Positions 1,134 through 28,458 of a DNA stretch of 36,839 bases are shown one piece after another. The stretch's first letter is position 1, and each line of letters starts with the position of its first letter. The stretch is from the NCBI GenBank assembly GCA_030615145.1, contig JAUWZT010000001.1, forward strand, positions 1-36,839, in the 5' to 3' direction. The notes under the pieces are model-generated. The model saw only the letters and a list, made by a program, of their open reading frames with translations. It ran no database searches and was not told the origin of the DNA. A program made the translations under genes and the position numbers. This stretch comes from Promethearchaeota archaeon. Lineage in GTDB: Archaea; Asgardarchaeota; Lokiarchaeia; Sigyniarchaeales; SOKP01.

Positions 1134-2039
1134 TTAAAATTCAAAACCACATTTGGTGCAGACAGATTTCTTTGCAAAAATAGGTTTAGGGATGTAACTT
1201 ATTATTTTTGATTTATCTTCAACCTCCTTAATTGCAAATCCAGTAGCTCCACAATTAGGGCAAATTCTCCTTCCTGATCCAAGTCCTGGGCTTATACTAG
1301 GAGTTGGTGTTGGGTCGGGGGTTGAAATTGGTGTAGAATCGGTTGAAAGTCCAAAAGAAGGGCTGCTACCATATGATGGAGTTTGTGAAGTAATCCCTTG
1401 AGCTAAACTTGATGGCATGACAGCTTTTGGTTCCTTCAATTCTTGAATTCTTCTTTCTTTATAAACGATTTCTTCTTGTAATTTGTTGATTTGGGCTTGT
1501 AATGGGCCAATTTGTTGTTGTAGGGTCATATTTTCTTGTTGAACTTGTTGAAGTTGATTTTGTAATTGGGGAATGTGAGCTTGTAGTTGAGCTTTCTCAT
1601 TATTTAACTGTGTGATTTGACTCTGAAAGCTTTCTATTGTTGTTTGAAGAGATTGAACTTGTCCAGTTAATTGTTTTACTTGACTATCTTTATCCAAAAA
1701 TTGTGCATTTAAATTAGCGTATTGAGCATTAACTTCATTTATCTGATTTTGTAGTTCATTGAGTGTTCTGTCTTTCTCTTGAACCTGAGTCATTATCATG
1801 TTATAATCTGCTTGTGAAGGACCACTAGGCATAGTTGTTTCCGGTTGATAAATGGGAGATTCAAGCGAGGGAGCAGGGGGAGAGGGTGGCGTTAGGGGTG
1901 CTATCGGTGGTGGGGTTATCGTTGGGGGAGGTACTGTTGGGGGAGGCATTGATGGAGGGGGCATAAATGGAGGCTGAACCGGAGGAGGGGCGCGTGGCTT
2001 ATATTCATCTTCGTCATCTCTTTCATTTTCTTCCGACAT
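1134..2039 (-). CDS. Polyproline / Q-rich coiled-coil / C-terminal zinc-ribbon protein (hypothetical)
   Basis: 301-aa ORF. The N-terminus has an acidic patch, then PPPVQPPFMPPPSMPPPTVPPPTITPPPIAPLTPPSPPAP (23 P in 40 residues). The centre is a Q/L/N heptad-like region (QLTGQVQSLQTTIESFQSQITQLNNEKAQLQ...). An S/T/P linker follows. The C-terminus carries CPNCG-x35-CTKCG. Confidence 0.75.
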   Translation of the reverse strand: MSEENERDDEDEYKPRAPPPVQPPFMPPPSMPPPTVPPPTITPPPIAPLTPPSPPAPSLESPIYQPETTMPSGPSQADYNMIMTQVQEKDRTLNELQNQINEVNAQYANLNAQFLDKDSQVKQLTGQVQSLQTTIESFQSQITQLNNEKAQLQAHIPQLQNQLQQVQQENMTLQQQIGPLQAQINKLQEEIVYKERRIQELKEPKAVMPSSLAQGITSQTPSYGSSPSFGLSTDSTPISTPDPTPTPSISPGLGSGRRICPNCGATGFAIKEVEDKSKIISYIPKPIFAKKSVCTKCGFEF

Positions 2040-8858: not shown

Positions 8859-9037
8859 GCAGATTCACCTTTAAAATAATAGTAATATACCAAAGTTATT
8901 TTTGGTGATATTTTAATTTGATATATTAACGATTTAAGCTTATTAAACTGCAAATAAAATTTGTCGGAAAAAAATCATGGGAGAGAAATGATTTAGTGAT
9001 ATACTCCATATGGTTTTTCATAATCCTAAAAGAAATG

Positions 9038-12000
9038 TTAACTTTCTCTCAATTTTGTTAGCATTTCGCATATTATTGGGTCTTGCGACATCTCACATCG
9101 AATTTTTAATAGCGTTATTACTCTTTTTTTTATTTTTTCATCTTTATATCTAATAGTGCGTCCTAGTATTATTGCGATCGATTGTTGTGTTTGAATTGAA
9201 TATTCATCACTTAAACTTTTCAATAGTTTAGAAAGTACTTTAGAAATACCAATTTCTTGTATAATTTTAACCATAACATCTACAGTAGTGTTTCTTACAT
9301 CCCCGCTTTCATCACCTAACAGTGAAATTACGCTACTAAAGATTCTATCAATATTTTCAAAGCTGTATATTTTTAATAAATTAGCTGCTCCCTCTCTAAC
9401 CTTGGAGTCTTTATTTAATAAATTCTCTGAAACTTTTTCAAAGGGGATTTGAGTTTCCGTAATTCCTTCTACTGATGAAAGAATGTTCATGGAAGAACGA
9501 CGAACCCAACTTTTATCGTCGTCTAATAAAGAAACAAGTTTTTCAATAATAGTCTCCTTGTTATCGACAGCTTTAAATATTTTTCCCAAACTTGCTACGG
9601 CTGCATCCCTAACTATCCACTCTTTGTCAACCAACGCTTTATTTATCAAAGCATCAGCAGTAGCGAAAGAGAGTTTCTGACCAATGTATCCTAATATTTT
9701 CACGCTTGTTTCCCTTATAAATGAATCTTCATCTGAAAGAAAATTTATAGTAAGGCGCACCGGAATAAGATCTGGTAATTGTTTTGATATTTCTAACATT
9801 GATTTAGTTAAAATTATTCTTATAGATATATCCTGTTTTGTTATGGTCTGTAATAAATCAGTCATTACCGATTGTAATGCTAAAGGATTAATTTTTGAAA
9901 TTTTTAAAATTAGTTGGGATACTTCTTTCTTAATTTTTTTATCGTTTTCACTTCGAATTAAAGATATTATTGATTTCATATCGATTTTATCCATGTAATC
10001 TTCTATTAATCCATCCAAAGAAGCAATAACATTTAATTTTATATCTTTATCATCGGAACCTAAATGATTAATTAATCTTGGTATTATTTCCTTAGGATGT
10101 TGTTTAGCAACTTTAGTTATCGTTCTAGAAATTACGCCTTTTGAGATATATTTTGATTCGTCCTTAGTTCTTATTAACCTTTCTAAAACTAACGTTGGGT
10201 TTTTTTCATAATTCTCAACGATTATATTTGAGATTCTTTCTTTTAATTCAAAATCATCAAATTTTATAAAAATCAAGAAAGTCATTAATATTTTTTCTGG
10301 ATTTTTGTCCCAAAGTTTACCAAGGAGAGTTAACACGCTGTTCAAAGATTTTAGATTTTCAGAGTCAATTTTACTGATAATCTTATCTATGTCAATGGAG
10401 TCAGGTTCTTCACTATAATACTTTACAAGAGCTGAAACAGATGCGTTCCTAACGCTTATATCTGAATCAACTAATCCTTCAAAAATGGTCGAAATAGGAA
10501 TATTAAATTTTCTGAAGTTCCCCATTTTAGAAATTACTTCAAATATAGATGCTCTAACAGAGCTCGTAGGGTCTCTCATAAAGGGAATTATTTTATTAAT
10601 AATTTCGGAGTCAATCTTTTCAACCTCTATATTCTTTATATTTTTAATGGCTGCGGCTCTAATTTCTTTATTGGTATGATTTAATTTATCTAAAAATGTT
10701 TCAATAGGAATATTAAGTGAAGATTCTGCTAAAAGGTTAAGAAGTTCCACTTGAATAGCGCTGTTTGGATCGTTTAAAAATTTCATCAAATCAAAATTTC
10801 GTACTACTTCTTTTTCTTTTTGAGCAATTCTTATCAAGAATTTTAATCCTAATAACTTTAATCTCCACTCTGAATCATTTACTAAGTTATATATAACAAT
10901 TATAGGAATTAGTTTAATTAAAGCAAAATCAGCATTTATTAAGGATTTTGCAATAGGAATACTTTTGTCGTAATTTGGAGATTCTAAAGATTCTATAATC
11001 CAAGGCAATACCATATTTGGAACTTCCTTCTCTAATTTAGTCAAAATTTCGAACGAGATCTTTCTTGAATTCGAGTTTGAGTCGCATAATCCGTCTAATA
11101 AGGAATTTTTAAATTTCCAATCATTTAAGGAGATTTCTGACTTCAAAGGAATCCTTTCAAACATCATCAAGAGCGTGCTTTCTGCGTGCTCTCTTAGTAC
11201 AGGATCAGAATGTTTGATAAAATTAAACAGTGGGATGGGATCAAAAGTTTGACCATACTCCGTAATTTTTGAGTATTTAAGATTTTTAGTAAACTCATTT
11301 TTTTTTGATAAGAAGTAATAAGATGTAAATGTGATTATACAAATTTCTTCGATTACTGCCGCCCAAGCAAACGTAGTAAAATTTGGAATAATTTCTTGTG
11401 TGATAATCGAATAACTTAAAGTCACCGATAATTTGTCGATATTCACTATTAAAAAATTTACTAAAACATTGAGACCAATTGCGGCCATTAAATACGCTGC
11501 AAAATATATATCAATTCCTCTATATTTAATTTTTCTACCCCAAAATCGAGTAAAGTATCCTATTATGCCAAACAATAGAGTAACAAACACAAAATACGAG
11601 GTCATCGTAGATATTGCTAGTGATCCAGAAAAAAAGAATATTATCGTTTGAACCATAGAAATCCAAGCCCACACAAAAACGAACAACATTAAACCGAATA
11701 GTATATACGGTTTAGGATTTGATATAAATTGTTTCATACCTCTTTTGCTATCTTCAAAATTTAAAAACGAAGATCTTTTAATTTCAGGGATATGAACGAA
11801 CTCGTTTGTTATTCCAGCTACATAGCCTTTCGAGCCATAAAATGATAAAATCATAAGGGGGTAGGCAAGTAACCAAGAAACCCAGATTACTAAAAAAGGT
11901 AATCCCGCAAGAGAAAGAATCATTGGAGGGATAATAAAGAGTAAATAAAGAAGAATTGCCATAATTACAGAAATAATCTTGCTTTTAGATAAATGAATAA

Positions 12001-12385
12001 TTTTATTCCCAATAAATTTATGAAATGGAGTAAGCCCCTCGTCAGATTCTGAACTTAAAGCAATAAATAAGAAATCTATAAGAGGGTATAAAGAAATATA
12101 CATCAAACAAAACACAAATGGGATAAGTAAAGAAAGAGGACTAATATCTGGGGGCGTTAATACGCTTCCTTGCCAAAACGCAGGAGTTTCTATGGCAAAT
12201 ATAAAAGCCATCGCGATTACAACCATAACTCCCATGCTAAAGACAAATCCGTAAATTAAGCATTGAAGGCGATCCTTGCTGTTAAACTCCCCTTTTTTAA
12301 CTAAACTAACTTGTTTGTAAATTATTATGAACCCAATAATGAAAAAAATTATAAAAAGGAGAAAAAGGATAAGTTCTGTAAGCAT
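9038..12385 (-). CDS. Polytopic membrane domain (about 380 aa) fused to a long HEAT/PBS-lyase-type repeat solenoid (about 730 aa)
   Basis: The N-terminal third is a run of hydrophobic helices. The remainder holds at least 10 repeats with the D-x-x-x-x-V/I-R-x-x-A/S signature: DPNSAIQVE, NKEIRAAAIKN, DPTSSVRASI, DSDISVRNASV, DEDSFIRETSV, DKEWIVRDAAV, DDKSWVRRSSM, NKDSKVREGAA, DESGDVRNTTV. Confidence 0.8.
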   Translation of the reverse strand: MLTELILFLLFIIFFIIGFIIIYKQVSLVKKGEFNSKDRLQCLIYGFVFSMGVMVVIAMAFIFAIETPAFWQGSVLTPPDISPLSLLIPFVFCLMYISLYPLIDFLFIALSSESDEGLTPFHKFIGNKIIHLSKSKIISVIMAILLYLLFIIPPMILSLAGLPFLVIWVSWLLAYPLMILSFYGSKGYVAGITNEFVHIPEIKRSSFLNFEDSKRGMKQFISNPKPYILFGLMLFVFVWAWISMVQTIIFFFSGSLAISTMTSYFVFVTLLFGIIGYFTRFWGRKIKYRGIDIYFAAYLMAAIGLNVLVNFLIVNIDKLSVTLSYSIITQEIIPNFTTFAWAAVIEEICIITFTSYYFLSKKNEFTKNLKYSKITEYGQTFDPIPLFNFIKHSDPVLREHAESTLLMMFERIPLKSEISLNDWKFKNSLLDGLCDSNSNSRKISFEILTKLEKEVPNMVLPWIIESLESPNYDKSIPIAKSLINADFALIKLIPIIVIYNLVNDSEWRLKLLGLKFLIRIAQKEKEVVRNFDLMKFLNDPNSAIQVELLNLLAESSLNIPIETFLDKLNHTNKEIRAAAIKNIKNIEVEKIDSEIINKIIPFMRDPTSSVRASIFEVISKMGNFRKFNIPISTIFEGLVDSDISVRNASVSALVKYYSEEPDSIDIDKIISKIDSENLKSLNSVLTLLGKLWDKNPEKILMTFLIFIKFDDFELKERISNIIVENYEKNPTLVLERLIRTKDESKYISKGVISRTITKVAKQHPKEIIPRLINHLGSDDKDIKLNVIASLDGLIEDYMDKIDMKSIISLIRSENDKKIKKEVSQLILKISKINPLALQSVMTDLLQTITKQDISIRIILTKSMLEISKQLPDLIPVRLTINFLSDEDSFIRETSVKILGYIGQKLSFATADALINKALVDKEWIVRDAAVASLGKIFKAVDNKETIIEKLVSLLDDDKSWVRRSSMNILSSVEGITETQIPFEKVSENLLNKDSKVREGAANLLKIYSFENIDRIFSSVISLLGDESGDVRNTTVDVMVKIIQEIGISKVLSKLLKSLSDEYSIQTQQSIAIILGRTIRYKDEKIKKRVITLLKIRCEMSQDPIICEMLTKLRES

Positions 12386-15492: not shown

Positions 15493-18400
15493 TCATTTTA
15501 ACTTCCAATTTTTTTTATTTTTTATAATAGAGACAACAATACTATTTTTACGCTCTAACTCCTTTAATTTTATTTGTAAGAAGCGTGCATCCATCATTTC
15601 TTTTATTTTCATTTTAAAAATTAAAGAAGTAATCGGTTGCCATTCATCAGATAGAGCGTCCAGTATTTTCTCTGTTGTAATTATCGGCAATTCGATTTGA
15701 GTAGGTTCAGGTTTAGGCGCTGGAGCACGAACTATGGGTTTCTTTATAGCGATAGGTTGAGTCGTCTCTTCACCCCCGACTAACCGCAATTGTTTTCTTT
15801 TTTCTGGTACGACTCTTGTAATGACGGGTTTGAGTTTTATAAACTCTTCTCTTTCCTTTACTAAAGGCGTTATTACTTCTGGCTTTTCTTTTGTATAAAA
15901 ATCTTGAATTATTTTAATAATTTCTGATTTTCGCACCGTTGAAGATTTAGCTATTAAGATATCCTTTTCTATGCAATATTCTTTGAGTTCATTAACGGTC
16001 CAGTTCCTTAGAGTTCTTTCTGAAAGAAATTCTTTTCTTGGTTCTGCCTTCTTGGAGATATATTCTTTCTTATCAATTGTTTTCTCCCATTCAACGACTA
16101 TTTTCTTCTGTTTTTCTTTTTCGATTTCTTCCTTTTTAATTGTTGGCTCTATCTCTTTAGAAATGCTAGGTATTTTTTTAACACCTATAGCATCTTTCAT
16201 TAAAGTTTCTAATTCCGTTTCTGAAATTTTTTCTTTATATTTTCCATCACTCTGCATAGCGATGTTATAGAGGCTTTGGACGAATATTGGAATGTATCTT
16301 TCAATTAAACCAGCTCTTTTTTCGATTTTTCGAATATTCGCTCTTCTATTAAGATATATTCTCAACCTTCTTCCAATAGCTTCGAGACAATATTTAATTT
16401 CTTTTAGAAGTTCTTCGTCGTCAGCCAAAGCATTTTTACTCTGACTCTTAAACATCAAATGAACATAAGGACCAGAAATATTTATTAATAACTTTATTGG
16501 GCCTTTAGGTAAATTATTATCATATGTTTCTAATTTATAATTCTTCCAATTAACTGATTGAACGGCTTTCGTAATTGCACAATCCGCAGAATCTCTTAAT
16601 TTTGGCGTTCTATTAATAAATCTTGATAGAACATCTCTAGAACGCTTAGGTGTATCAAGTTTTTTAGGATCATTACAATAAGCCAAAACAGCTTCCACAG
16701 CATATGCTAAGCCCTTACCGCTTGTTGGAGCTCTTGTTTCTGCAGAAATAAAATCGTCGTCCTTAGTGTAACTTTCCATAAAATATTCAAATATTTCTTG
16801 ATATGAATCTTTTTCGACTTCTTCAGATGATATAAAATTTTTTTGGATTGTTTGTCTAAATTTTTCCGGTTCGACAGAGCGATCTTTAATATCAATACTA
16901 GCTAATATCTTTGAGTTAAAAATTTTAACCTCTTCGGAATTTACAACAATTTTTTCTAAAGATTCGTCCTTTCCGGAGGATAAATTTTTGGCATTCTTTT
17001 TTATTATTTCATCCCGCATTCCCTCAATTGAATCTTTTATGTCATCTATGGGATCATCAAAATCGTCAATATTTGTAGATATTTTTAACCCAATTTCTTT
17101 TATTAATGTATTTTCTAATACAACATCACCTACAGGGATTGCTGTGTCTGTTGGGGGCGCCATATATTTGACTGATTTGAATGCATGAAATAGAGAATTG
17201 AATTGCACATTAGTTAACTCAGAGGGTTTAATTTTTGAAATTTGAACTTCTTTTACTAAATCTTCAAATTCACTTCTATTTTTTAATTTTTTAACTTCTA
17301 CCAACCCTATAGAAGTATTGAAAATAGTATTTAAACCATTTTTTATTTTTTCTTTATTTTGTGAATTGTTCTCTATTTGTTTTAATAAGTTATTAATCTC
17401 TTTTTCGATTTTTTTTATATCTTTTTTCGTTTCAGATTTATCAATACGATGTCTATGTTTTTTTATTTCTCTATATATTTTTTCTAAATCTTTTTCATAT
17501 TGGTTATATTTTTTCATAAGTTCCCAATATTTAGCCTTCAACTCTTCAGAATCAACTTGATAAATGATTAATTTATCTCTTGGTTTCGTAGATCGCCCAA
17601 ATATTCTCTTTTCAAATTTAAGGAAATTAATAGTATCAGTATTTTTCTTTAATTTGTTTACAAATCCATTATTAAGAATTAATAAAGATAAAATATCTTG
17701 TAAATTCCTTTCTGCGATCTTCAGAATTTCTTTAGCTAATTTGGAACTAATTCTTACAAAACTATCTTGTAAAAAAGCTGATATCGTGAGTTTTTCTGAT
17801 TTTATTAAAAGATCTTGTAAATCACCAATATTAGTAGATAAAGGGTGTGGTTTTGCATATTTTGGCTGTTTAGGAAAACTTGAAACTACCCTTCTATAAA
17901 TCCATTCTTCACCATAAGGATCAATAAAAATAATAGTTACATGCGGATTCATTAAAGCAGTTTCTCTAATAAATGTATCCACATAACCTCTAACATATTT
18001 CACGTTTAAATAATTCAACTTAATATATGTCCCGTGTAAGAATGGGCTGTCAACCTCCGTTGGGCGCACTAAATATCGTTTTTCATTTTTTGAAGTTGTA
18101 AAAAATTCTGACGCGGTAGCATAAATAGTATCTTTAGACTTTGAAACTGCAACAACTGGTTTGCCAGTCGTGTTTTGGGCGTCACTAAACGCACTTGGAG
18201 CGCCAAATCCTTGGCTTCCACGAGTTTGCTTTAATTCTAGACTTTTTGAAGAAGCTAGATATTTTCCAAACTTACCTAGATCTCTTCTGGTCATTCCAAT
18301 ACCATTATCAAACATTTCAAAAGTGTAACTCATGATATTTTTTTGCGATAATTCAGAAGTTAAAAAGGCGGCGGCTTCAGATTCGCGGAGTCGGATTATT

Positions 18401-18909
18401 ACAATTGGTTCGATATCAATGATTGGTTCTACAGGTTTGATGATTTCATTCATGTCATCAATAATCCTTTTTACTTCTTCCTCAACCTCTAATTCCTCTT
18501 TGTCGATAATTTCTCCGGATTCTTCTTCTTTATCTCTATCAACATCTACAAAATCTTCAGCATCAGAAGCTATTGTAGGAATTATACCAACTTCTTGCAT
18601 CAATGCAAATTTAGCTGCGTTATTTAATGGCCGTTCCACCTCATCCTTTTTTGCTTCTTGAAGGATAGATAAATTTTCTAAAGATAATTCTTGATCAAGA
18701 GAGAATTGGATTTTTGAATCTTTATCTATTATTTCATTCCATTGGAAATCTTCAATAGCATCTAAACTGTTGTCTAAAAATTCTGAAATGTATTGCATAT
18801 GTTTATAATAACCCATTGAGAAGCCTACAAGTTGTCCTCTCTTTCTCATAAACCCTGCAATTGTGCCTTGCTTTATTCTACCTTCATCCTCAGAGGAAAT
18901 TTGAATCAC
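15493..18909 (-). CDS. top6B: DNA topoisomerase VI subunit B, atypically long (1138 aa)
   Basis: GHKL N-box SEFLDNSLDA (aa 42-51), G1 FDNGIGM (199-205), G2 KQTRGSQGFG. KPHP and the H2TH are at TISAFLQDSFVRISSKLAKEIL. The transducer has LSRFINRTPKL, WKNYKL and FKSQSKNALA (switch Lys). Large extra segments lie between these blocks, and about 250 aa follow them. The start is GTG. Confidence 0.93.
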   Translation of the reverse strand: MIQISSEDEGRIKQGTIAGFMRKRGQLVGFSMGYYKHMQYISEFLDNSLDAIEDFQWNEIIDKDSKIQFSLDQELSLENLSILQEAKKDEVERPLNNAAKFALMQEVGIIPTIASDAEDFVDVDRDKEEESGEIIDKEELEVEEEVKRIIDDMNEIIKPVEPIIDIEPIVIIRLRESEAAAFLTSELSQKNIMSYTFEMFDNGIGMTRRDLGKFGKYLASSKSLELKQTRGSQGFGAPSAFSDAQNTTGKPVVAVSKSKDTIYATASEFFTTSKNEKRYLVRPTEVDSPFLHGTYIKLNYLNVKYVRGYVDTFIRETALMNPHVTIIFIDPYGEEWIYRRVVSSFPKQPKYAKPHPLSTNIGDLQDLLIKSEKLTISAFLQDSFVRISSKLAKEILKIAERNLQDILSLLILNNGFVNKLKKNTDTINFLKFEKRIFGRSTKPRDKLIIYQVDSEELKAKYWELMKKYNQYEKDLEKIYREIKKHRHRIDKSETKKDIKKIEKEINNLLKQIENNSQNKEKIKNGLNTIFNTSIGLVEVKKLKNRSEFEDLVKEVQISKIKPSELTNVQFNSLFHAFKSVKYMAPPTDTAIPVGDVVLENTLIKEIGLKISTNIDDFDDPIDDIKDSIEGMRDEIIKKNAKNLSSGKDESLEKIVVNSEEVKIFNSKILASIDIKDRSVEPEKFRQTIQKNFISSEEVEKDSYQEIFEYFMESYTKDDDFISAETRAPTSGKGLAYAVEAVLAYCNDPKKLDTPKRSRDVLSRFINRTPKLRDSADCAITKAVQSVNWKNYKLETYDNNLPKGPIKLLINISGPYVHLMFKSQSKNALADDEELLKEIKYCLEAIGRRLRIYLNRRANIRKIEKRAGLIERYIPIFVQSLYNIAMQSDGKYKEKISETELETLMKDAIGVKKIPSISKEIEPTIKKEEIEKEKQKKIVVEWEKTIDKKEYISKKAEPRKEFLSERTLRNWTVNELKEYCIEKDILIAKSSTVRKSEIIKIIQDFYTKEKPEVITPLVKEREEFIKLKPVITRVVPEKRKQLRLVGGEETTQPIAIKKPIVRAPAPKPEPTQIELPIITTEKILDALSDEWQPITSLIFKMKIKEMMDARFLQIKLKELERKNSIVVSIIKNKKNWKLK

Positions 18910-19119: not shown

Positions 19120-20403
19120 TTATTTTGAAATTTCTCTGATTCGGTAATTCTCTAAGGCTACATCAATTATTTTAGAAGCTACATATCTTTTTGTATGTTT
19201 TTCAATATGAGTTATGTGTTTTTCTTTATTTATTATGTATACTTCATTATCTTTACTGTTGAACCCTATATCTTCTCGACCCACATCATTAGCAACTATT
19301 AAATCTGACTCAGATTTTAAAAGTCTATCGTAAGCGCGATCAATTAGCTCACTTCGAGAAACATTTGTCTCCGCTTTAAATGCGATAATAAAAAGATTGT
19401 AATCTTTCCTTCTTGCTATATCTAATATCTTAGGCGTTAATTTCATATTTACATTTAATTTATTTACTTTATCTGACGATATTTTTCCTTCAATAAGTTC
19501 CACTGGCTTATAGTCGCTAATTGCGGCAGCAGAAATAAAGAAGTCGTAATTATTATATGAAATTTCATCCTTTATGACTTTAGTAAAATCGTCTGCCGAT
19601 TCGACATGTTTTGTTTTAAGGTACTCTGGAATCTTCACCATACATTCACCAGCAACTAATAATACATCCGCACCTCTAGCAGAGGCTTCTTTTGCTATTT
19701 CGATACCCATTCGACCTGAGGACTTATTTGATAAATACCGAACATTGTCTATTGCCTCGCGACTTGGTCCAGCGGTGATTAATATTCTCTTTCCTTCAAG
19801 ATCCTTTTTCGTAATCAATAAATCAATAACTCTATCTATTATATCACCCACTTTTGCAATTTTAGCCTTTCCTTCAGATATTCGCGGACCTAATACGTCA
19901 ATACCATACTTTTTCAAAACTGAGATATTTTTTTCGATTATAGGATGATACATGCTTTCATGCATGGCAGGAACTACGACTATAGGGATAGATGAACCAA
20001 AAGCGGTTGAAATAATTGTTGTTACCGGGGTGTCGTCGATACCATTAGCGACTTTGGAAATAGAATTTGCTGTTGCTGGACAAACCAAAATTAAATCAGC
20101 TTTTCCAGCGGCATTAGGTCTATCACCCGCTAGAAAAACATGTTCAACTGATCCAGTCAAATGAGTAATTACAGGGTTTCCTGTAGCCCAATGCATTAAA
20201 GTTGGTTTTATTAACTCTGTAGCTGCTTTTGACATTACGGAAATTACATCCGCTCCTAAACGCATTAATTCTCTAGCAATTATTGGAGCGTTAATAACCG
20301 CAACCGAGCCAGTTAAACACATACATATAGTTTTTCCTCTTAAGATTGTTCCCTTGCTTTCTATAATGTCCTTGGATGGGTGCTGTAATCTGTCTTTTAC
20401 CAT
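19120..20403 (-). CDS. coaBC: Bifunctional phosphopantothenoylcysteine decarboxylase / phosphopantothenate-cysteine ligase (CoaBC/Dfp)
   Basis: The N-terminal flavoprotein half has ICMCLTGSVAVINAP...PAMHESMY. The C-terminal DFP half has ILITAGPSREAIDNVRYLSNKSSGRMG and AAAISDY. Size is 427 aa. Confidence 0.92.
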   Translation of the reverse strand: MVKDRLQHPSKDIIESKGTILRGKTICMCLTGSVAVINAPIIARELMRLGADVISVMSKAATELIKPTLMHWATGNPVITHLTGSVEHVFLAGDRPNAAGKADLILVCPATANSISKVANGIDDTPVTTIISTAFGSSIPIVVVPAMHESMYHPIIEKNISVLKKYGIDVLGPRISEGKAKIAKVGDIIDRVIDLLITKKDLEGKRILITAGPSREAIDNVRYLSNKSSGRMGIEIAKEASARGADVLLVAGECMVKIPEYLKTKHVESADDFTKVIKDEISYNNYDFFISAAAISDYKPVELIEGKISSDKVNKLNVNMKLTPKILDIARRKDYNLFIIAFKAETNVSRSELIDRAYDRLLKSESDLIVANDVGREDIGFNSKDNEVYIINKEKHITHIEKHTKRYVASKIIDVALENYRIREISK

Positions 20404-20879: not shown

Positions 20880-22088
20880 TTATGCTGAATCGGAGGGGAG
20901 AATTGGATTGATAAGCAGGTTTCGAAAATCCTTAACCGAAGGATAGTCCCCATATTTGTTTATTATGAGTTTGCTTCCTATATTATACGAGAAAGCAGTA
21001 ATTGAATGTACTGGATTAAAAAATGATTTTATTCGATTTTTTATATTTTCTTGGCTAAAGATTTCAAAACTGGTTGCGTATCGAATTAATTTCTCTTCGG
21101 TCCACCCGTCAATAAGAGCATGATAAGTGAAATTATACCAGAAAAGCGATAGTTTTCCTTTTACTTTGCCTTGCGCTAATAATGCTTCAATAGAAGATTC
21201 TTTTGACGAGTCTTGACAAAATTCTCGTAAGCTAATTTCTGCTTGGTCTAAATAAGAGAAGAGCATATTAGCAGCGACTTCTGCTATACCTTCGCTAATT
21301 ATTAACTTGGGCGAGTTTAGTAGCAGGATTGAGTGTTCAAATTGACTTAAATCGCGATATAGCCTCTGTTCTTTGACAATAAATTCTGTATGATGGCCAG
21401 GGTACCCTTCGTGAGCGGCAGCAGACAAAAATAAGGTCCAATACATGTTATAATTCGGGTTAACTTCTATTCGGGAGCGAAAATTACCCAGGTACCAATT
21501 GTAATAAGTCCATTTAATTTTATTATTGTTGTTATTTTTTACTAGCTCTATATTAATGTGCTCACTTTCAGGTAAGAGATCGACAAATACTTCTTTAGTT
21601 CGCTCTCTCGTGATGTTGAGAGCTTTCTTAAATAGTCCAAAAACCTTACCTTTAGGAATCGTTCGCTGCACTCTTAAATCCTTCATGCGTTCTTCTAGAC
21701 TTCCAGAACCTTTATATGCTGCGTTAAACTCTTCTTTTAAGTTATCCAATTCAGATTCGTTAGCTGGCTGTAAGGCCACATCATATAACCTTAAAAATTG
21801 TTCCTTAAAAGGTATTTCGACTCCGTTTAATATCTCGATCGAAGTCCTCATCGCCGTTAACATTTTTTCTAAGTATCGCTCGCGTTTTTTATCGTAACCT
21901 TGTTTAAACAAATCTTTTTGTAGAGCTTTGCAATCTGCTAATAATTTGTTTGGTGAAGTTATAACCTCATTGTCAACGATTTTGCGTAATTTTTTAGGAC
22001 CAATATAAAAATCTACATATCCCTTATTGTGTTTGTGTATGTGAAGTGCTAAATGCAGAAATCTTATTCCATATTCAGATAATTTCAT
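20880..22088 (-). CDS. DUF885-like putative metallohydrolase, paralog 1
   Basis: Motif SAAAHEGYPGHHTEF, recalled as the HE-x-x-PGHH signature of DUF885. The family assignment is from memory, not from a search. It is a clear paralog of 34658..35845 along its whole length, and both end in LPSD. Confidence 0.6.
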   Translation of the reverse strand: MKLSEYGIRFLHLALHIHKHNKGYVDFYIGPKKLRKIVDNEVITSPNKLLADCKALQKDLFKQGYDKKRERYLEKMLTAMRTSIEILNGVEIPFKEQFLRLYDVALQPANESELDNLKEEFNAAYKGSGSLEERMKDLRVQRTIPKGKVFGLFKKALNITRERTKEVFVDLLPESEHINIELVKNNNNNKIKWTYYNWYLGNFRSRIEVNPNYNMYWTLFLSAAAHEGYPGHHTEFIVKEQRLYRDLSQFEHSILLLNSPKLIISEGIAEVAANMLFSYLDQAEISLREFCQDSSKESSIEALLAQGKVKGKLSLFWYNFTYHALIDGWTEEKLIRYATSFEIFSQENIKNRIKSFFNPVHSITAFSYNIGSKLIINKYGDYPSVKDFRNLLINPILPSDSA

Positions 22089-22319: not shown

Positions 22320-24680
22320 TTACTCCTCAATTATATTTAAATTTAGTTTTAATTTTGAGGTATAAAACATTATCTTATTAAAAATATCTTGATCTATTTC
22401 TAGCTTTGCGCCTAAATTCAATATATTCGAAAACTGGTTACCGTAATAGGTTTTAAACAACTCGGATACATTATATAAGGCGTTTTTTTCAGAAGATTTA
22501 GATATTTTAGATTTTTCAAATTCATCTTTTCTTATTTTTAAGATTTCACTAGAATATTTGACAAATTGTGTATGTCGCATTTTTTTTAGGTCGAAAATCT
22601 TTGTACTTCCAATCTCTCTTACTACGAGTACATTTTTTGCGACTGAATGAATTTTATTGAGTAGTTTCGTTCTGAATTCATCCAAATTACTTATTTCGCT
22701 TAATAACTTCTGAATTATTTTGGAAAATGGTAAATCTAATCCAGCTAATTCAGTCGTTAAATTTAATAATATTAAAATTTGATCCGTTTTCTCTTCAGAA
22801 TTAGATTTTAATTCTTGGTAAATATATTCTCTTTCTTTATTTATAAAATCGAATAAAAATTTTCTAAAAGCTTTTACAAATTGACGATAGTTTGGGACAA
22901 ACAGTCTATTTGGGTTATTTGATATAATTTCATAAGCTTTAAAAGGGCTAATCTTTTTATCGAGAACTGATTTGATAAGAGATAAAGGGTAATATCCTTC
23001 AATAAATACCATCCCCTTCGAAATACTATTAATTGCGTCTTTAAACGAACATTTTGCGATTATATTGATTCTTTTAACGATATTTCCTTCGATTTTTACT
23101 GGTGTTTTTTGACAATAAACTAAATCGAAAGGTTTCAAGTCGTGAAAAAGAGAGTTGTTTTGATCTGGGATAACAATTTGAGCACCATATGCATTTACTA
23201 AACTACCTTGTCTTGGCTTACTAGCTAAATCCCATTCGATTATCATAAGATCGTTAATATTAGAATAATCTTGATCAATGTCGTAATTGTATTCTATAGG
23301 TTTACTTATTAATGAAAAAACATCTATAGAATTAATTTCATAACTATTTTCTTCTCCCCAGAATTGTTTTTTATAATAAAAAATATCTGGGAAGTTGTTT
23401 AAATCGTCTAAAAATAATTCTTTAATTATTAAATAGTTAACTCCAATTTCCGAAGATTTAATGGTAGATTCGTTTATTCCATAAAAACCGATGTGTCTTA
23501 TAACGTAATTGTAAGCTGGGTTTTTGAGATTCTCTTTATCGTGATTAACTATATAGGTGTTTCTCTTTTTTCTAAAGTCAACTTTAGATTTTTTAATTTT
23601 ATATTTTTCCTTAAGCAGATTGAGAAAGGCAAATTTCTTTAAATATACTTTCTTTTCTAATTCTTTTATTTCGCTTTTATAAGCCTTGTATTCGTCATAG
23701 TACGCATCTTTTTGAATCTTAAAAACTTCAAAATGCCTCTTCATTAGCTTTAGTTTATCTATTACGCAGAAATTCTCTATTTCGCTTTTAAAATACTTTA
23801 CAATTTCGCTTTTAAACGATTCAAAAGCCTTCAAAGGTATTAAATCTTTGAAAAGCGGATTAATTTTAACAAGCGTTTCGTAATTTTTTTTTATAAAAAA
23901 AGTTGACAAGTACATTTCATTAAAATCGTTTGAATTAGCCATTTTTTCCAATTTCTTAAGTATAGATGAAACAAAAGATTCGTTTTGAAATCTATAAACA
24001 TCTAATAATTTATCAAACGATTCTATAATTCTAAGTATGTCAAAAAATGTATATTTTGAGACCGAATTTAGAAATAATTTAATTCCTTTTTCTATGTAGT
24101 TATTATATTTGAGAAGATAGGGACCTAATTCGTTATCGTAGGCAGATTGCAGAAATTCAAAAAATTCAATATACAAATTGTTTTCAATTGCTGTTTTCAA
24201 ATACCTTTCAATAACCGTTTCGCACTCGTGTTGATTAATAATCGCTTTGTTTAAATAATTTAGTCCCTCAACACAATTTTCACTTTCAAAACAAGCATTA
24301 GCCAATTCCAAATAGTTTTTGCTCTTCTTTTTGGAACCAAAGTCTTCAGAAGTTAAATAAAAATCGTTAATATTATTGATAATTTTTAAAGAAATCGACG
24401 GTTTTATTATCGTTAAAAGTCTTATCAGATGAATACATATCTTATCATCTCTTTCGCTGTGTATTAAAAAAGTAGGACAATCGTGAAATATTTCATTTTT
24501 TTTCTCGTTAATAACTAGGTGGAATTCCCGGTCATTATCTAAAATGATTGATCTTATCTTTATTGGATCTTCTTTCAGTGAAATTATGTTAATTTTATTT
24601 TTCTGGAACTCAACTGATTTCTTATATATTTCAATTCCATATTTCTCAATTATTAATTCTGATAATTTAGTTTTTGTCAT
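22320..24680 (-). CDS. SWIM-type zinc-finger protein with TPR-like helical region and large uncharacterised C-terminal part (786 aa)
   Basis: aa 66-84 read H-D-C-P-T-F-LIHSERDDKI-C-I-H-LIRLL. This is a SWIM-like (C/H)xC...CxH pattern with the usual hydrophobic helix after CxH. YLELANACFESENCVEGLNYLNKAI looks TPR-like. I recognise no motif in the rest. The start lies 4 nt after the VWA gene stop. Confidence 0.75.
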   Translation of the reverse strand: MTKTKLSELIIEKYGIEIYKKSVEFQKNKINIISLKEDPIKIRSIILDNDREFHLVINEKKNEIFHDCPTFLIHSERDDKICIHLIRLLTIIKPSISLKIINNINDFYLTSEDFGSKKKSKNYLELANACFESENCVEGLNYLNKAIINQHECETVIERYLKTAIENNLYIEFFEFLQSAYDNELGPYLLKYNNYIEKGIKLFLNSVSKYTFFDILRIIESFDKLLDVYRFQNESFVSSILKKLEKMANSNDFNEMYLSTFFIKKNYETLVKINPLFKDLIPLKAFESFKSEIVKYFKSEIENFCVIDKLKLMKRHFEVFKIQKDAYYDEYKAYKSEIKELEKKVYLKKFAFLNLLKEKYKIKKSKVDFRKKRNTYIVNHDKENLKNPAYNYVIRHIGFYGINESTIKSSEIGVNYLIIKELFLDDLNNFPDIFYYKKQFWGEENSYEINSIDVFSLISKPIEYNYDIDQDYSNINDLMIIEWDLASKPRQGSLVNAYGAQIVIPDQNNSLFHDLKPFDLVYCQKTPVKIEGNIVKRINIIAKCSFKDAINSISKGMVFIEGYYPLSLIKSVLDKKISPFKAYEIISNNPNRLFVPNYRQFVKAFRKFLFDFINKEREYIYQELKSNSEEKTDQILILLNLTTELAGLDLPFSKIIQKLLSEISNLDEFRTKLLNKIHSVAKNVLVVREIGSTKIFDLKKMRHTQFVKYSSEILKIRKDEFEKSKISKSSEKNALYNVSELFKTYYGNQFSNILNLGAKLEIDQDIFNKIMFYTSKLKLNLNIIEE

Positions 24681-24684
24681 TCTC

Positions 24685-27198
24685 TTAAAATCTCGATTTT
24701 ATAATATCAGAAATTAATTTTGGAAAATCATTCCAATCTTTTATAGTTAATAATTGCCCTCCTGCGATTTTAACCATTTTTTTTGCTTCTTTTAAGTTAA
24801 AGGAGGATTCTGGGCAGACTAAGATAAAATCAATCCCTAAAGAGCGGAAAATTCTTAATGTTTCAATAGATTGCTGAAGGTCGTATATTTCAGCATCAGT
24901 AAATAATACATTCAGCTTTTCACGGGAGCTTGACTTTTCTTTAAATTGTTTTTTTGCCCATTCTAAGGCGCTTTGAAGCCTCGTACCGCCCTTAGCTGAA
25001 ACAGAGAGCAACTCATCGGCTAATTTTTCTAAATCTACTTTTTTAGATAATTCCTTTAAAACATGTGTATCTGACTCGAAAAAAGCAATAGCAATCTCAT
25101 CCTTTCTCATCCCATATACTAACATCGTCACACATATTGCCATATATGCTAATTTTTCTCCTGTCATCGAACCGCTTATATCTAGTTCAAAGCATAACGA
25201 CCGTAATCCTTTTGCGGTTTCATAGACAAAAAAATCGTCGTAATTAATATGATCTAATTTTTTACCCTTTTCTAGAAGATGAAAAATTGTTTCCTCCAAG
25301 TCTATATTTTCAAAGTCGTCTCCTATTGTGTAGGGTCTTACTATGTTAATAGGTGTAGGTCCGGTTGTTGCACTGCCTAAACGAGCCCTTGAGTAATAAA
25401 TTCCTAACTCAATTAGCATTTTTTTTGCTAATTCCTTAACCTTTAATTTAACTTGCTCTGGTAGACTATTTCTATGAATAAACCATTGTTTAAGGAGACT
25501 CTCACCAGTACCCGCAGATAAACACGCAATTACTTTATCTTGCGCTTCTTTGCCACCAATTTGCTGAGCACCTTTTAAAGCCTCAGTCAAATTAAAATGA
25601 CCAATTGCACCTAAAGCATCTCTATTATCGGAAGCTAACGCACTGCTTAAAAGCTCTCTAATTCTCTCTTTATTTAGTTGGTCTTTAATTTGATTCATTA
25701 AATTGTTAATTCGCTGAAAATCTGCTACCTTCTTTTCAATCGTTTTTTTAAGTAATTGATAGTTAGGTTCAATTAATTCGTATATTTCCTCTTCGGGCAT
25801 TTCAAGTTTTTTTCCAATTCTTTTAATATCTTCTGCTTCAGGATTTAATCCGATCTTTCTTAAGAATTCTGTTGCGTTTCTTAATTGCTCAGGTGTTTCA
25901 CAAGCCTCTAGTGTTCGAGAAATTAATTCAGGTAATTTTTGAGATATTTTTTGTCCACAGTGCATGTTTGGGCAACTATTCATTAATTGTTGCATTTGAT
26001 GAGAAAGCGATTTAAATGCTTCAAACTTAATATTTTGACTATTTGCCTCGTCGATCGCATTTTTCATAGCTTGGCTAAATAGCGAATTCCAAGATTTATT
26101 AGCAAATGCATTTTTTGTCAATATATCTAACGATAAATTCAATTGTTTATTTTGTTTTTGCAGATTTTGCATTTGCCCATTTAATTTATTTAGCAATTCT
26201 TCTCTTAAATTAGTACCAAAATATTGATCTAGCGAGTCTGCAAGGTTAAAATTATGCTCAAATGAAGATTGGTTTAGCGAATTATTCAAAACTTTGTCTT
26301 GATCAAACTTAGGAGTTTCGCCTAAAGTTTTTGCGGCATTAAATAATTGATCTAAATTATTTAGTTGGTTCTGAAGTTGATTTTTAATATTTTGGATTTG
26401 ATCTTTTATGCTTTGATTGTCCGAAGTCTCATTAATAAACTTTATAGACTTTAAAAGATCATCTAATTTGTTTGAATTAATTAGTTTTGATAAATCCTCT
26501 GAAATATCTTGATTATTGAGAGCTTTACTTGCGAGTTTTTCCCATTCCCTTAAGGAATTTTGCTGGATTAAGTCGTTTAAACCTAAATTCGAACCAGCCC
26601 TTAAATCGTCAGGACTCAACGAATTTATTTTTTGTTCTAGCCTTTTTTGGGCTTCTTGAATTAGTTTTTCTAAGGAAGATATCTCTTCTTTGTACAATTC
26701 CGAATCGTCGTTAAAAAAATTTAATGCGGATTTATATGGCTCTTTCTCCCTATTCGAATTTAATTCTTTAAGAAATTCCTCTAATTTTTGAATCTCATCT
26801 GTATCTATTGATTTTGTCGCCTCGATTTCGTCTATGATCTCTTGAAGTTGATCTAATTCAGACTTCATCTCGGATTCTACAAGGTCTTCAATAGATTTAT
26901 CAAATGTATCTTCGCTCTGAAAAAACGAGTCAATAATATCTTTTTTGTAATTTGGAAAGAGAATTTTAAAAGCAATATCTTTTGCTAATTCCTGATTGTC
27001 CGGAAATGAAGTTACGGTACTTATTTCTATGTAATCGTTAGGTGTCACAAAGCCCTTTCGATAATACCTTGATAAAATTAATTTTGGAATTGATAAAACT
27101 TGACGTGATGACGGAATTTGGATAATGTCGGCATGAGACCTCATTTTTCTAATGAAATCTACAGCAAATTCGCAAGGATTTTCAGGAAAAACTGCCAT
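24685..27198 (-). CDS. VWA (MIDAS) domain protein with long Q/N/E/K-rich coiled-coil linker (837 aa)
   Basis: The C-terminal VWA has a complete MIDAS: LDISGSM (about 25165-25182), AKGGT, FTDAE. The central roughly 450 aa are low-complexity helical (QIQNIKNQLQNQLNNLDQL...). The N-terminal roughly 90 aa are unassigned. An SD-like GGGGT lies 13 nt upstream of the ATG, in the 18-nt gap after the MoxR gene. Confidence 0.85.
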   Translation of the reverse strand: MAVFPENPCEFAVDFIRKMRSHADIIQIPSSRQVLSIPKLILSRYYRKGFVTPNDYIEISTVTSFPDNQELAKDIAFKILFPNYKKDIIDSFFQSEDTFDKSIEDLVESEMKSELDQLQEIIDEIEATKSIDTDEIQKLEEFLKELNSNREKEPYKSALNFFNDDSELYKEEISSLEKLIQEAQKRLEQKINSLSPDDLRAGSNLGLNDLIQQNSLREWEKLASKALNNQDISEDLSKLINSNKLDDLLKSIKFINETSDNQSIKDQIQNIKNQLQNQLNNLDQLFNAAKTLGETPKFDQDKVLNNSLNQSSFEHNFNLADSLDQYFGTNLREELLNKLNGQMQNLQKQNKQLNLSLDILTKNAFANKSWNSLFSQAMKNAIDEANSQNIKFEAFKSLSHQMQQLMNSCPNMHCGQKISQKLPELISRTLEACETPEQLRNATEFLRKIGLNPEAEDIKRIGKKLEMPEEEIYELIEPNYQLLKKTIEKKVADFQRINNLMNQIKDQLNKERIRELLSSALASDNRDALGAIGHFNLTEALKGAQQIGGKEAQDKVIACLSAGTGESLLKQWFIHRNSLPEQVKLKVKELAKKMLIELGIYYSRARLGSATTGPTPINIVRPYTIGDDFENIDLEETIFHLLEKGKKLDHINYDDFFVYETAKGLRSLCFELDISGSMTGEKLAYMAICVTMLVYGMRKDEIAIAFFESDTHVLKELSKKVDLEKLADELLSVSAKGGTRLQSALEWAKKQFKEKSSSREKLNVLFTDAEIYDLQQSIETLRIFRSLGIDFILVCPESSFNLKEAKKMVKIAGGQLLTIKDWNDFPKLISDIIKSRF

Positions 27199-27216
27199 AA
27201 AATAACTTTTTACCCC

Positions 27217-28158
27217 CTACACACCTAAAGTTTTATGAATAATACTTTCAATAATATTTTCAACTTTTGTACCAGGCTTTGGTTTCATACTTCCTAGTAA
27301 AACGTTACGAGTGATCTCTGAAAGATATTCGTTAGTTGATGTTTTTTCTTTAATTTTTCCTTCTTTTTCTAAAGATCGTCTTCGAGCCAAGAGTTTTGCT
27401 ATCGCAATTCCGGCCCGAATTGACGCTGGTACTTCAATATCTATTTTATTCTTTCTCGTTTCGTTTATTATTGAATAAATTAATTCTAAATCAGACTCTT
27501 CGATAATAAAATGTTCTGGCAAATTTATTCTTATAATCTCGAGCTCAGTCGCTTTATCGGGATATGTTAATTTAATCCAGACCTTAATTCTATCCTTTAA
27601 AGCCTCAGATAATCGATGAGTGCCCGAAAGCTCTTCCGGGTTCATAGCAGAAATAAAGAAGAAATCCTTGCTAGCTTTTATTCGACCCAAGTGCGGAATG
27701 TTAATCGATTCTTCCTCTAAAGGTTCTAATAAAGTGTTTTGTGAGTATTCAGTAGCTCGATTTATTTCATTAGCTAAAAAAGTTCCACCTTCTAACATTG
27801 CGCTCAAAAGTGGGCCGGGATTAAATGCTTCTAATACAAATCCCTTTTTTAGAGTAATAGCAGGATCGAAACTTCCAATAAAATGCGAAGGTTTTATGCT
27901 TTCGTCCATGGTGAGCCAGAAAAAGCTCTTATTTTTTTTTTCTTTAGCTCTTAAACTAGCAAAATATCTACATAAAATAGTTTTCCCCACTCCGGGCGGT
28001 CCAACAAGAGCTGGAAATAATCCTGTTGCCTCGGCATCTCTAAGTAATTCCAGTGCTTTACCATATTGCCCTGATAAAACAATTTCAATTGGTTCTTGAG
28101 ATATATCTTTTATAAGTTGTTGCTGAAATAACTCCTCGAATCTTTCTTTATTAATCAT
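27217..28158 (-). CDS. MoxR-like (AAA_5 / dynein-related) AAA+ ATPase
   Basis: Walker A LVGPPGVGKT. The Walker B region is TFLANEINRA, where the MoxR consensus is hhhhDEINRA. Sensor-1 is FISAMNP, followed by LKDRI. Size is 313 aa. Confidence 0.88.
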   Translation of the reverse strand: MINKERFEELFQQQLIKDISQEPIEIVLSGQYGKALELLRDAEATGLFPALVGPPGVGKTILCRYFASLRAKEKKNKSFFWLTMDESIKPSHFIGSFDPAITLKKGFVLEAFNPGPLLSAMLEGGTFLANEINRATEYSQNTLLEPLEEESINIPHLGRIKASKDFFFISAMNPEELSGTHRLSEALKDRIKVWIKLTYPDKATELEIIRINLPEHFIIEESDLELIYSIINETRKNKIDIEVPASIRAGIAIAKLLARRRSLEKEGKIKEKTSTNEYLSEITRNVLLGSMKPKPGTKVENIIESIIHKTLGV

Positions 28159-28458
28159 TTTATTTTCTCTGATTAAAGACGACTATTCAAAGTCTTTCTT
28201 TTTGTAAATAATAAGTATTTGGTAATTTTTAACTTTGAATGTAATAAGAAAAAAGGATTATAAATAAGTAATAAAATTAAAATAGAAGTCTATTTGTTTT
28301 TAAAAATGAAAGGCAAATATATGATAATCTTAGAAATCCTAAAAGATTTTATAATAACTCATAACAACTTTTATTTAGTTTTAAAATTATAATAAAAATT
28401 AAAGTAATGATATTTTAATTAAAAATTAATCAAAAATTACAATTTTTTGGGAATAACA

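Follow-up and report, generated by a model that had tools for sequence, protein, structure and literature searches.

A MoxR–VWA–SWIM gene triad kept nearly unchanged across Lokiarchaeia is probably a housekeeping protein-remodelling machine

Pairs of a MoxR-type ATPase and a VWA-domain protein are among the most widespread AAA+ modules without known clients. The adaptor CbbO is built of an N-domain, a helical region, and a C-terminal VWA domain, and in the Bat operons of Bacteroides (MoxR(MRP)–DUF58–VWA–TPR type) MoxR is co-encoded with VWA and TPR-containing proteins, with Bat being membrane-anchored. In the adaptor NorD, a helical linker region lies between the N-domain and a C-terminal VWA domain that has a metal ion-dependent adhesion site (MIDAS), and the C-terminal tail is functionally important; in the cryo-EM structure of NorQD, a VWA “finger” enters the ring pore, the C-terminus makes contact with the post-sensor-1 loop, and twisting of the ring stretches the linker (PMC13036017). 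In MoxR–vWA ternary conflict systems, MoxR and vWA are joined by a large third protein composed of an N-terminal module, a helical middle, and a conserved C-terminal domain, and what defines such systems (VMAP, iSTAND, FtsH, and beta-propeller types; Kaur et al. 2020) is their variable architecture, together with effector displacement and mobility (PMC7159879). Here, we describe a triad of genes for a MoxR-type ATPase, a VWA protein, and a SWIM-finger protein on a 36,839-nt stretch of contig JAUWZT010000001.1 (assembly GCA_030615145.1) from a Promethearchaeota archaeon, hereafter the window; coordinates are window positions, and residue numbers refer to the window proteins. The window (G+C of ~31%) is ~96% identical at the protein level to a contig of the metagenome-assembled genome (MAG) “Promethearchaeota archaeon Loki_b31”. 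We found that the triad is kept nearly unchanged across Lokiarchaeia, and it is therefore probably a housekeeping protein-remodelling machine. The closest precedent for the gene combination is the uncharacterised yehL–yehM–yehP–yehQ set of Escherichia coli.

The triad consists of three consecutive open reading frames (ORFs) at 28158..22320, encoding the MoxR-type AAA+ ATPase (313 aa; 27217..28158), the VWA/MIDAS protein (837 aa; 24685..27198), and the SWIM-finger protein (786 aa; 22320..24680); these genes and all of their features given below lie on the minus strand. The original prediction, made from the letters of the window, had described three co-directional genes separated by 18 and 4 nt, which the sequence confirmed: the MoxR–VWA junction reads TAG-GGGGTAAAAAGTTATTTT-ATG, and the VWA–SWIM junction reads TAA-GAGA-ATG. 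The MoxR–VWA gap was 3–24 nt in 62 of 63 species pairs, with a lone exception of 429 nt, and the VWA–SWIM gap was 3–8 nt in 64 of 70 species pairs. Insertions of 99–2377 nt split the VWA and SWIM genes in six species (loci L027, L042, L029, L046, L052, and L064); the L027 insertion (7624–10000 of that locus) is a gene for a 493-aa B12-binding radical-SAM protein.

The translation signals differ among the three genes. The MoxR stop codon and the 18-nt spacer (27199..27219) include an internal ribosome-binding site for the VWA gene, which reads TAGGGGGT in the window and TAGGAGG in most species; the GGGGT previously pointed out as Shine–Dalgarno (SD)-like is a local variant of this motif. An SD-like motif follows the MoxR stop codon and precedes the VWA start in 70 of 71 species. 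Such a motif preceded the MoxR start in only 5 of 60 species and the SWIM start in only 6 of 76, and upstream of the window MoxR start there is none. The VWA stop codon and the 4-nt spacer to the SWIM start (24681..24687) have a spacing typical of termination–reinitiation coupling, without an SD motif. The operon promoter presumably lies in the AT-rich intergenic region (28159..28446) between MoxR and a divergent glycyl radical enzyme (GRE) gene; in Rfam and tRNA scans of the window, tRNA-Ala alone was found, outside the operon, and no Rfam family was detected in 28159..28446. These signals are those expected of a polycistronic archaeal mRNA in which the first cistron has a short leader at most, the second has its own internal ribosome-binding site, and the third relies on stop–start coupling, and we infer that the three genes are co-transcribed as one such mRNA. 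Together with the conserved SD motif, the short gaps support the earlier view of the genes as one unit.

The survey of Lokiarchaeia covered one genome per species (GTDB representatives), scanned with the most conserved peptides of the SWIM family. It yielded 106 loci, of which 80 were retained, each from a different isolate; no isolate occurred twice among these 80, that is, there was a single locus per genome. Counts of triad presence and of neighbours refer to the 65 loci whose upstream DNA spans 3.6 kb or more. The complete triad, in the same order and with the ATPase and VWA genes directly upstream, was present in 63 of the 65. The two loci without an intact triad were L057 (truncated VWA gene, no MoxR) and L066 (split MoxR). 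The recurrence of this order and spacing in more than 60 species puts the gene arrangement far outside what chance would produce.

Identity to the window proteins across Lokiarchaeia was 80–98% for MoxR (median: 87.5%), 63–98% for the VWA protein (median: 72%), and 51–96% for the SWIM protein (median: 59%). For comparison, the medians of neighbouring gene products were 77% for CoaBC, 71% for valyl-tRNA synthetase (ValRS), 66% for the GRE, and 62% for the B subunit of topoisomerase VI (TopoVI-B). The ratio of nonsynonymous to synonymous substitution rates (dN/dS), computed against three close relatives, was 0.04–0.06 for MoxR, 0.05–0.07 for the VWA protein, and 0.13–0.14 for the SWIM protein. 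In addition, protein lengths were almost invariant among Lokiarchaeial orthologues (VWA protein, 826–837 aa). The triad is thus under strong purifying selection and evolves at housekeeping rates.

Some source labels in the survey disagree with the sequences they carry. Locus L010 (DATKTW010000114.1), labelled “Candidatus Nanopelagicaceae bacterium” (an actinobacterium), carries a Lokiarchaeial triad, GRE, and DUF885-like gene at 65–93% identity, so that mis-binning of this contig is almost certain. Loki-like loci at 56–90% identity were also present in several DZ*/H3B/QM1B MAGs with the labels Hod-, Hermod-, Odin-, or Thorarchaeota, and these phylum labels may be unreliable.

An exhaustive search of 1.84 billion protein cluster representatives with the SWIM-protein profile retrieved 81 relatives in total, and genomic context was looked up for 11 of them. 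Five full-length members (P0142, P0143, P0144, P0175, and P0195), only 14–23% identical to the window SWIM protein, have kept the gene order AAA–VWA–third protein, and their flanking genes are entirely different. At P0139, the VWA gene is directly upstream, followed by the contig end; P0183 starts at a contig end; and P0185, a leucine-rich repeat (LRR) protein sharing only the terminal module of the SWIM protein, has no MoxR or VWA gene nearby. The P0189 locus (L094, 6001–10612) encodes in turn a protein of 356 aa that corresponds to the C-terminal half of the SWIM protein (hhalign probability of 97%, E of 4e-11), a MoxR 40% identical to the window MoxR with the same Asn–Glu Walker B motif, and an 855-aa VWA protein. 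Since the C-terminal half stands there alone beside MoxR and VWA, it is the part that accompanies this MoxR–VWA clade, whereas the SWIM/TPR half is an add-on. L094 is flanked by corrinoid-methyltransferase-type genes (B12-binding, URO-D), suggesting a non-Asgard archaeal host.

Overall, five or six strongly diverged lineages also carry the triad, with other neighbours, and beside the Lokiarchaeial counts this shows it to be conserved as a unit, as the original prediction required. The three genes thus form a tightly spaced, conserved operon-like unit whose conservation is independent of its neighbours. The source labels of the diverged relatives, where given, were Helarchaeota, Promethearchaeota/Lokiarchaeota, and once “Methanosarcinales”; the SWIM-protein family seems to occur only in some of the Asgard group and in a few other archaeal MAGs. 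Six diverged triads retain the Walker A motif, the ANE(I/L/F)NR motif, the MIDAS residues, the pre-VWA motif, and the C-terminal tail of the VWA protein. The MoxRs of three of them (L082, L084, and L086) have lysine-rich N-terminal extensions of 55–100 aa, which in L084 contain a Rho_N (SAP-like) domain, whereas the Lokiarchaeial MoxR is without any N-terminal extension.

The assignment of the first gene to MoxR/AAA_5 ATPases held: it matched Pfam AAA_5 (5.5e-18, 65.8 bits; cut-off, 22) and AAA_3 (4.1e-13, 49.8 bits; cut-off, 27). Its best single-domain relative in the PDB was 2r44, a bacterial MoxR (4.5e-12, 49 bits), presumably from Cytophaga and of the MoxR-proper group. Midasin ranked at the top of the PDB matches, but this rank is an artefact because six weak domain matches (best, 19.3 bits) were summed. 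Among NCBIfam models, GvpN scored 66.8 bits against an equivalog cut-off of 266.8, which MoxR thus did not reach, and no NorQ or CbbQ model was in the match list. PADLOC-DB v2 matches to MoxR were marginal and generic to AAA domains (IetA, 0.0016; TRIP13, 0.003).

The Walker A motif of MoxR is GPPGVGKT (residues 53–60; 27979..28002), conserved in all diverged triads. The Walker B motif, FLANEINRA (residues 127–135; 27754..27780), is atypical: Asn130 replaces the Walker B Asp of MoxR and midasin, being aligned with the D of the LDE motif in midasin AAA domains, whereas Glu131 is kept. Alignment positions 121–140 were 100% conserved in 60 orthologues, and the ATPases of all six diverged loci examined retain ANE(I/L/F)NR; this Asn–Glu Walker B is a clade signature. 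Candidate motifs for the sensor 1 Asn (SAMNP), the Arg-finger (ALKDR), and the sensor 2 Arg (SIRAG) were assigned by eye.

The VWA protein ends in a VWA domain, matching Pfam VWA_2 at residues 672–769 (9e-11, 42.8 bits; cut-off, 27) and VWA_CoxE at residues 667–799 (1.3e-05). The complete MIDAS anticipated there is present as D673-x-S675-x-S677, T739, and D768, and all five ligands are invariant in 22 orthologues. The best PDB profile match of the domain was the VWA domain of CLCA1 (2.9e-05). A pre-VWA motif, V-R-P-Y-x2-G-D-D-x3-I-D-x2-E-T, and a C-terminal W..FP..IS tail are also conserved; together with the VWA domain, they occupy 24688..25341 (DxSxS at 25168–25182). At the other end, the N-domain (residues 1–95; 26914..27198; FPxNP...PSxRQ...VTS) shows majority-residue conservation of 0.87–0.90 and motifs that are also found in diverged triads, with no family match. 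No extra Pfam domain or effector domain was found on the VWA protein.

Between these ends lies the region that had been taken for a very long coiled-coil spacer, and hence for part of a tethered mechanical device or sensor. Its description as a Q/N/E/K-rich helical stretch holds, since residues 96–600 are 38% Q/N/E/K and predicted to be helical; the coiled coil does not. AlphaFold2 modelled residues 175–595 at a predicted local distance difference test (pLDDT) score of 80–90 as ~30 short helices of 5–26 residues, and conservation is 0.55–0.85, with a length nearly fixed in Lokiarchaeia; one diverged VWA protein has an insertion of ~170 aa in this domain. Foldseek searches with the model returned only weak TPR or designed-repeat matches (best E of 1.6e-3). 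The confident short-helix model and the conserved sequence and length point to a folded, helical-repeat-like all-alpha domain (residues ~115–597; 25408..26856) rather than a flexible tether, and the overall layout is also that of NorD. In this helical domain, C409, H413, C414, and C433 were considered as a Cys/His metal site, which was dropped because, although invariant in Lokiarchaeia, it is not kept in the diverged triads.

The third protein, in which the original prediction had recognised no motif over about 550 aa, matched no characterised family: Pfam, NCBIfam, and PADLOC gave no match, searches of the PDB by phmmer and by profile returned nothing even at E of 10, and Foldseek against the PDB returned nothing below E of 0.02, with only TPR- or 14-3-3-like matches. 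Its putative zinc finger alone links it to SWIM, and it represents a previously undescribed family. The HxC...CxH pattern reported earlier at 24429–24485 maps exactly to H66-x-C68...C82-x-H84 (H66-D-C68-P-x-F...C82-x-H84). The signature, HxC-x13-CxH, has His instead of the first Cys of the canonical CxC...CxH, and conservation of the four ligands is 90% or higher across members that are 14–51% identical, including those at only 14–23%; diverged members read HDCPDF...CKH, that is, classical SWIM sub-motifs with the first Cys changed to His. The N-terminal ~110 residues were modelled by AlphaFold2 as four beta strands, the zinc-ligand motif, and then a helix. The window protein itself did not match PF04434, which was matched below threshold by 5 of 15 family members (best E of 0.019). 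Residues 46–110 found remote profile matches (E of 1e-4 to 9e-4 in 1.84 billion proteins) that carry Pfam SWIM (P0191, 4.8e-05 and 23.2 bits; P0201, 5.3e-04 and 19.9 bits; cut-off, 19.6). We accepted the finger as SWIM-type, its Pfam link running through these relatives only.

Residues ~117–360 (23601..24332) form a TPR-like all-alpha region, with AlphaFold2 helices at pLDDT 70–90 and weak Foldseek matches; it is the least conserved part (0.52–0.77), and one diverged member has a TPR_2 match at 6e-4. The C-terminal half (residues ~467–786; 22323..23282) contains the most conserved core, IIEWDL...IPD...KPFDLxxC at residues 480–525; conservation is 0.83–0.93 over residues 481–580, and W483, P517, and C523 are invariant family-wide. 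A terminal module of ~140 aa (residues 643–786; ...TYYG...) recurs in small proteins and LRR-protein fusions. This mobile module (22323–22754; motif ...F-D-L...R..E-F-E...Y-D...T-Y-Y-G...), also seen in P0185, P0186, and P0200, forms the C-terminus of the LRR proteins and of several small proteins; the one LRR example checked, L093, is not beside MoxR–VWA.

The yehLMPQ set resembles the Asgard triad in combining, in the same order, an AAA_5 ATPase (YehL, a subfamily of MoxR ATPases), a CoxE-type VWA protein (YehP), and a large protein whose SWIM finger is N-terminal (YehQ, residues 56–88, compared with 66–84 in the Asgard protein). Both ATPases depart from the Walker B Asp (FEEITR in YehL, ANEINR in the Asgard family), and both systems are uncharacterised. 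However, yehLMPQ includes a DUF5682 protein (YehM) and an associated DUF4132 gene, neither of which was detected in the Asgard system, and YehP has 378 aa, whereas the Asgard VWA protein has 837 aa with a large helical N-terminal part. YehL is 27% identical to MoxR over 170 residues, that is, at the level of generic AAA_5 similarity; the YehP match is confined to the VWA core (3e-4); YehQ gave no hhalign match to the SWIM-family profile; and the Asgard proteins showed no similarity to YehM/DUF5682. We therefore rejected orthology with yehLMPQ, as only domain composition and gene order are in common. The proposal that the triad is an undescribed system stands in that we found no description in the literature consulted of a MoxR–VWA–SWIM system in Asgard archaea, but the combination of genes has this precedent.

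NorQ–NorD and CbbQ–CbbO likewise pair a ring ATPase with one large adaptor, and the window VWA protein is laid out in the same way, its tail likewise being conserved. They differ in being two-component systems beside a known client (nitric oxide reductase [NOR] and rubisco, respectively), whereas in the Asgard system a third subunit is conserved and no client is adjacent, and in Walker B, where Asn–Glu sets the Asgard ATPase apart. They offer the best available template for how the triad might work. From Bat operons, the Asgard triad differs in having a SWIM finger, no DUF58, and no membrane segments (no membrane-like segment was found in the MoxR, VWA, or SWIM protein).

Known MoxR–VWA pairs often lie beside their client, as with CbbQO–rubisco and NorQD–NOR (PMC13036017 and PMC4660213), and the original prediction had named two neighbours, the divergent upstream GRE (PFL-like, 4e-192; Gly_radical, 5e-25) and the downstream product with a weak DUF885 match (7.5e-4, below the Pfam cut-off), as candidate clients of a dedicated maturation or repair chaperone. 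A GRE is indeed present within ~7 kb upstream in 40 of the 45 Lokiarchaeial loci with enough DNA. However, this adjacency is no stronger than that of coaBC, which is downstream in 64 of 65 loci, and is part of a class-wide synteny of the region (GRE, coaBC, topoVI-B, and valS); it therefore lends no support to a GRE partnership. The GRE also evolves faster than the ATPase (medians of 66% and 87.5%), and glycyl radical enzymes require a radical-SAM activase, not metal insertion. The DUF885-like gene (20880–22088, minus strand), between the SWIM gene and coaBC, was present in just 4 of 65 loci and looks like a patchy insertion outside the conserved neighbourhood. The diverged triads had none of GRE, DUF885, coaBC, or topoVI beside them. 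Both proteins were rejected as clients on the basis of the 4/65 presence, the shared synteny, and this absence, and we regard a chaperone dedicated to either neighbour as highly improbable. Conversely, co-transcription might be all that joins the MoxR–VWA pair to the SWIM protein, each functioning independently. The insertions that set the SWIM gene apart from the VWA gene in six species would allow this, as would two SWIM-family members (P0172 and P0152) that are not adjacent to MoxR–VWA genes, yet adjacency persists at 14–23% identity and through complete turnover of flanking genes, and even the C-terminal half alone stands beside a MoxR–VWA pair with Asn–Glu Walker B in a different gene order. 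Functional independence therefore seems scarcely credible to us.

The combination of MoxR, vWA, and a large third protein is also the defining logic of nucleoside triphosphate (NTP)-dependent conflict (anti-virus/anti-invader) systems of the MoxR–vWA “ternary” kind (PMC7159879), which the original prediction had brought up, and the SWIM protein could then be a VMAP-like sensor or scaffold. Its tripartite build is VMAP-like, with a variable all-alpha middle set between an N-terminal domain and a C-terminal part that is alpha+beta and conserved, and two diverged MoxRs gave faint or weak matches to Pfam bpMoxR. Against this, the vWA protein has no effector domain and carries its VWA domain at the C-terminus, not the N-terminus; none of the VMAP-C, VMAP-M, and iSTAND Pfam families was matched at E up to 1 in 15 SWIM-family members, and PADLOC-DB v2 gave no match for the VWA or SWIM protein. 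Furthermore, the triad is archaeal and belongs to the core genome, with fixed architecture and lengths, one locus per genome, and core-chromosome synteny in more than 60 species, its dN/dS is 0.04–0.14, and its divergence matches that of housekeeping genes. The variability, effector displacement, and mobility by which such systems are defined (PMC7159879) are not seen here, and a conflict role is very unlikely. A further parallel drawn earlier was with midasin (Rea1/Mdn1). Taken further, it would make the triad a prokaryotic, split-gene functional counterpart of midasin that remodels a ribonucleoprotein or chromatin complex, such as a ribosome-assembly intermediate, in the archaea closest to eukaryotes. 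The triad has the same set of parts as midasin (AAA_5-type modules, a long helical arm, and a MIDAS domain, which in midasin docks on the ring), housekeeping-level conservation and a core-genome location fit an essential assembly factor, and the SWIM finger and the basic/Rho_N tails of the ATPases may point to nucleic-acid-associated targets; scenarios of eukaryogenesis have drawn on midasin homologues (PMC10732040). However, this parts list is common to every MoxR–VWA pair, and midasin is a single polypeptide of 4,900 aa with six fused AAA domains and no SWIM partner. All six of these domains align weakly with the Asgard MoxR, the best at 19.3 bits compared with 49 bits for 2r44, and the VWA profile did not retrieve the MIDAS domain of midasin from the PDB; a special kinship with midasin was therefore rejected. 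In addition, no eukaryotic homologue of the third protein was recognised (the 81 representatives themselves are unlabelled, and every source-given name seen for the family was archaeal), and the family seems confined to part of the Asgard group and a few other archaeal MAGs. We consider a midasin-like role unlikely.

The explanation we favour, with slightly better than even confidence, is that the triad is a vertically inherited, cytoplasmic, three-subunit remodelling machine of the MoxR-type AAA+ class that is specific to Lokiarchaeia and related Asgard archaea and has a housekeeping job. By analogy with the described systems, the MoxR ATPase would form a hexameric ring, with one VWA protein docked on it by way of the VWA domain and the conserved tail at its C-terminus. 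An acidic residue of the target would be captured by the MIDAS metal, and binding and hydrolysis of ATP would shift the position of the VWA domain with respect to the N-domain and helical arm, thereby remodelling the held partner. The SWIM/TPR protein would be a dedicated specificity subunit or an obligate client; it would bind the MoxR–VWA core by its C-terminal half and the real target, which is plausibly a nucleic-acid-associated complex, by its N-terminal SWIM/TPR half. Such a target is hinted at by the SWIM finger and by the lysine-rich/Rho_N extensions of diverged MoxRs. Walker B Asp-to-Asn mutants of other P-loop ATPases are the basis for reading the invariant Walker B Asn as a sign of slow, switch-like ATP turnover, which it may be, rather than of processive unfolding.

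Several points weigh against this explanation of the triad as a remodelling machine. Every mechanistic step is drawn by analogy with NorQ–NorD, CbbQ–CbbO, and midasin. NorQ, CbbQ, and RavA were not retrieved from the PDB with the MoxR sequence at E up to 1, and Foldseek with the model of the VWA adaptor gave no match to NorD or CbbO, so that the analogy with NorQD and CbbQO rests on domain class and not on close kinship. With Asn in Walker B, hydrolysis could also be weak or absent. The quality of the AlphaFold2 models is mediocre: that of the VWA protein had a pLDDT of 63.1, with the N-domain (pLDDT below 50) and the VWA domain unmodelled, and that of the SWIM protein, from a 15-sequence alignment, had a pLDDT of 69.5, with residues 443–545 unmodelled. 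P0172 and P0152, standing apart from MoxR–VWA, indicate that the third protein may also work alone. Finally, L057 (CP070805.1, “bin132”, a chromosome-level MAG; 8956–9996) keeps only the C-terminal 346 aa of the VWA gene, with no MoxR upstream and with its upstream genes on the opposite strand; this is either a local rearrangement, a loss of the system, or an assembly problem.

The rest of the window flanks the triad with chromosomal housekeeping genes, namely those for MCM, a HEAT-repeat protein, topoisomerase VI A and B, CoaBC, a putative valyl-tRNA synthetase, tRNA-Ala, and a histone-deacetylase-family protein. The TopoVI-B ORF (15493–18909, minus strand) has 1138 aa, about double the usual size, with a transducer domain only at residues 717–864 and a weak GHKL-ATPase match, and this long form is conserved over Lokiarchaeial loci at 58–95% identity. 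The HEAT-repeat protein (9038–12385, minus strand; 1115 aa) had weak condensin Cnd1-like and GCN1-like matches, and a 301-aa coiled-coil protein (1134–2039, minus strand) had sub-threshold ATG16- and crescentin-like matches. Antisense ORFs of 109–159 aa on the plus strand (27620–28099, 21526–21897, 19574–19948, and 18332–18661), opposite the MoxR, DUF885-like, coaBC, and topoVI-B genes, are low-complexity and Ser/Ile-rich and were therefore regarded as spurious.

The triad is a lineage-specific variant of the well-known MoxR–VWA remodelling module, a well-defined “conserved unknown” that overturns no current view and would not surprise a specialist in AAA+ proteins. Its presence in nearly every Lokiarchaeial genome examined, at a conservation equal to or above that of tRNA synthetases and topoisomerase VI, indicates that it very likely serves a core cellular task, and this task would sit in the archaea closest to eukaryotes. 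It also brings a new third-subunit family, the C-terminal half of which marks a recognisable MoxR–VWA clade with Asn–Glu Walker B. A bolder version of the housekeeping role, to which we assign quite a low probability, is that the triad is an essential and largely Asgard-restricted remodeller of a nucleoprotein assembly (a ribosome precursor or chromatin), in which the SWIM/TPR protein would recognise the target and the slow ring would act as a switch; if true, such a remodeller would stand, in function, as a forerunner of midasin-type assembly factors or as their analogue in the lineage leading to eukaryotes. With the client identified, Asgard cell biology would gain a new cellular process, and a tractable three-protein model would become available for how a MoxR ring uses a VWA adaptor.

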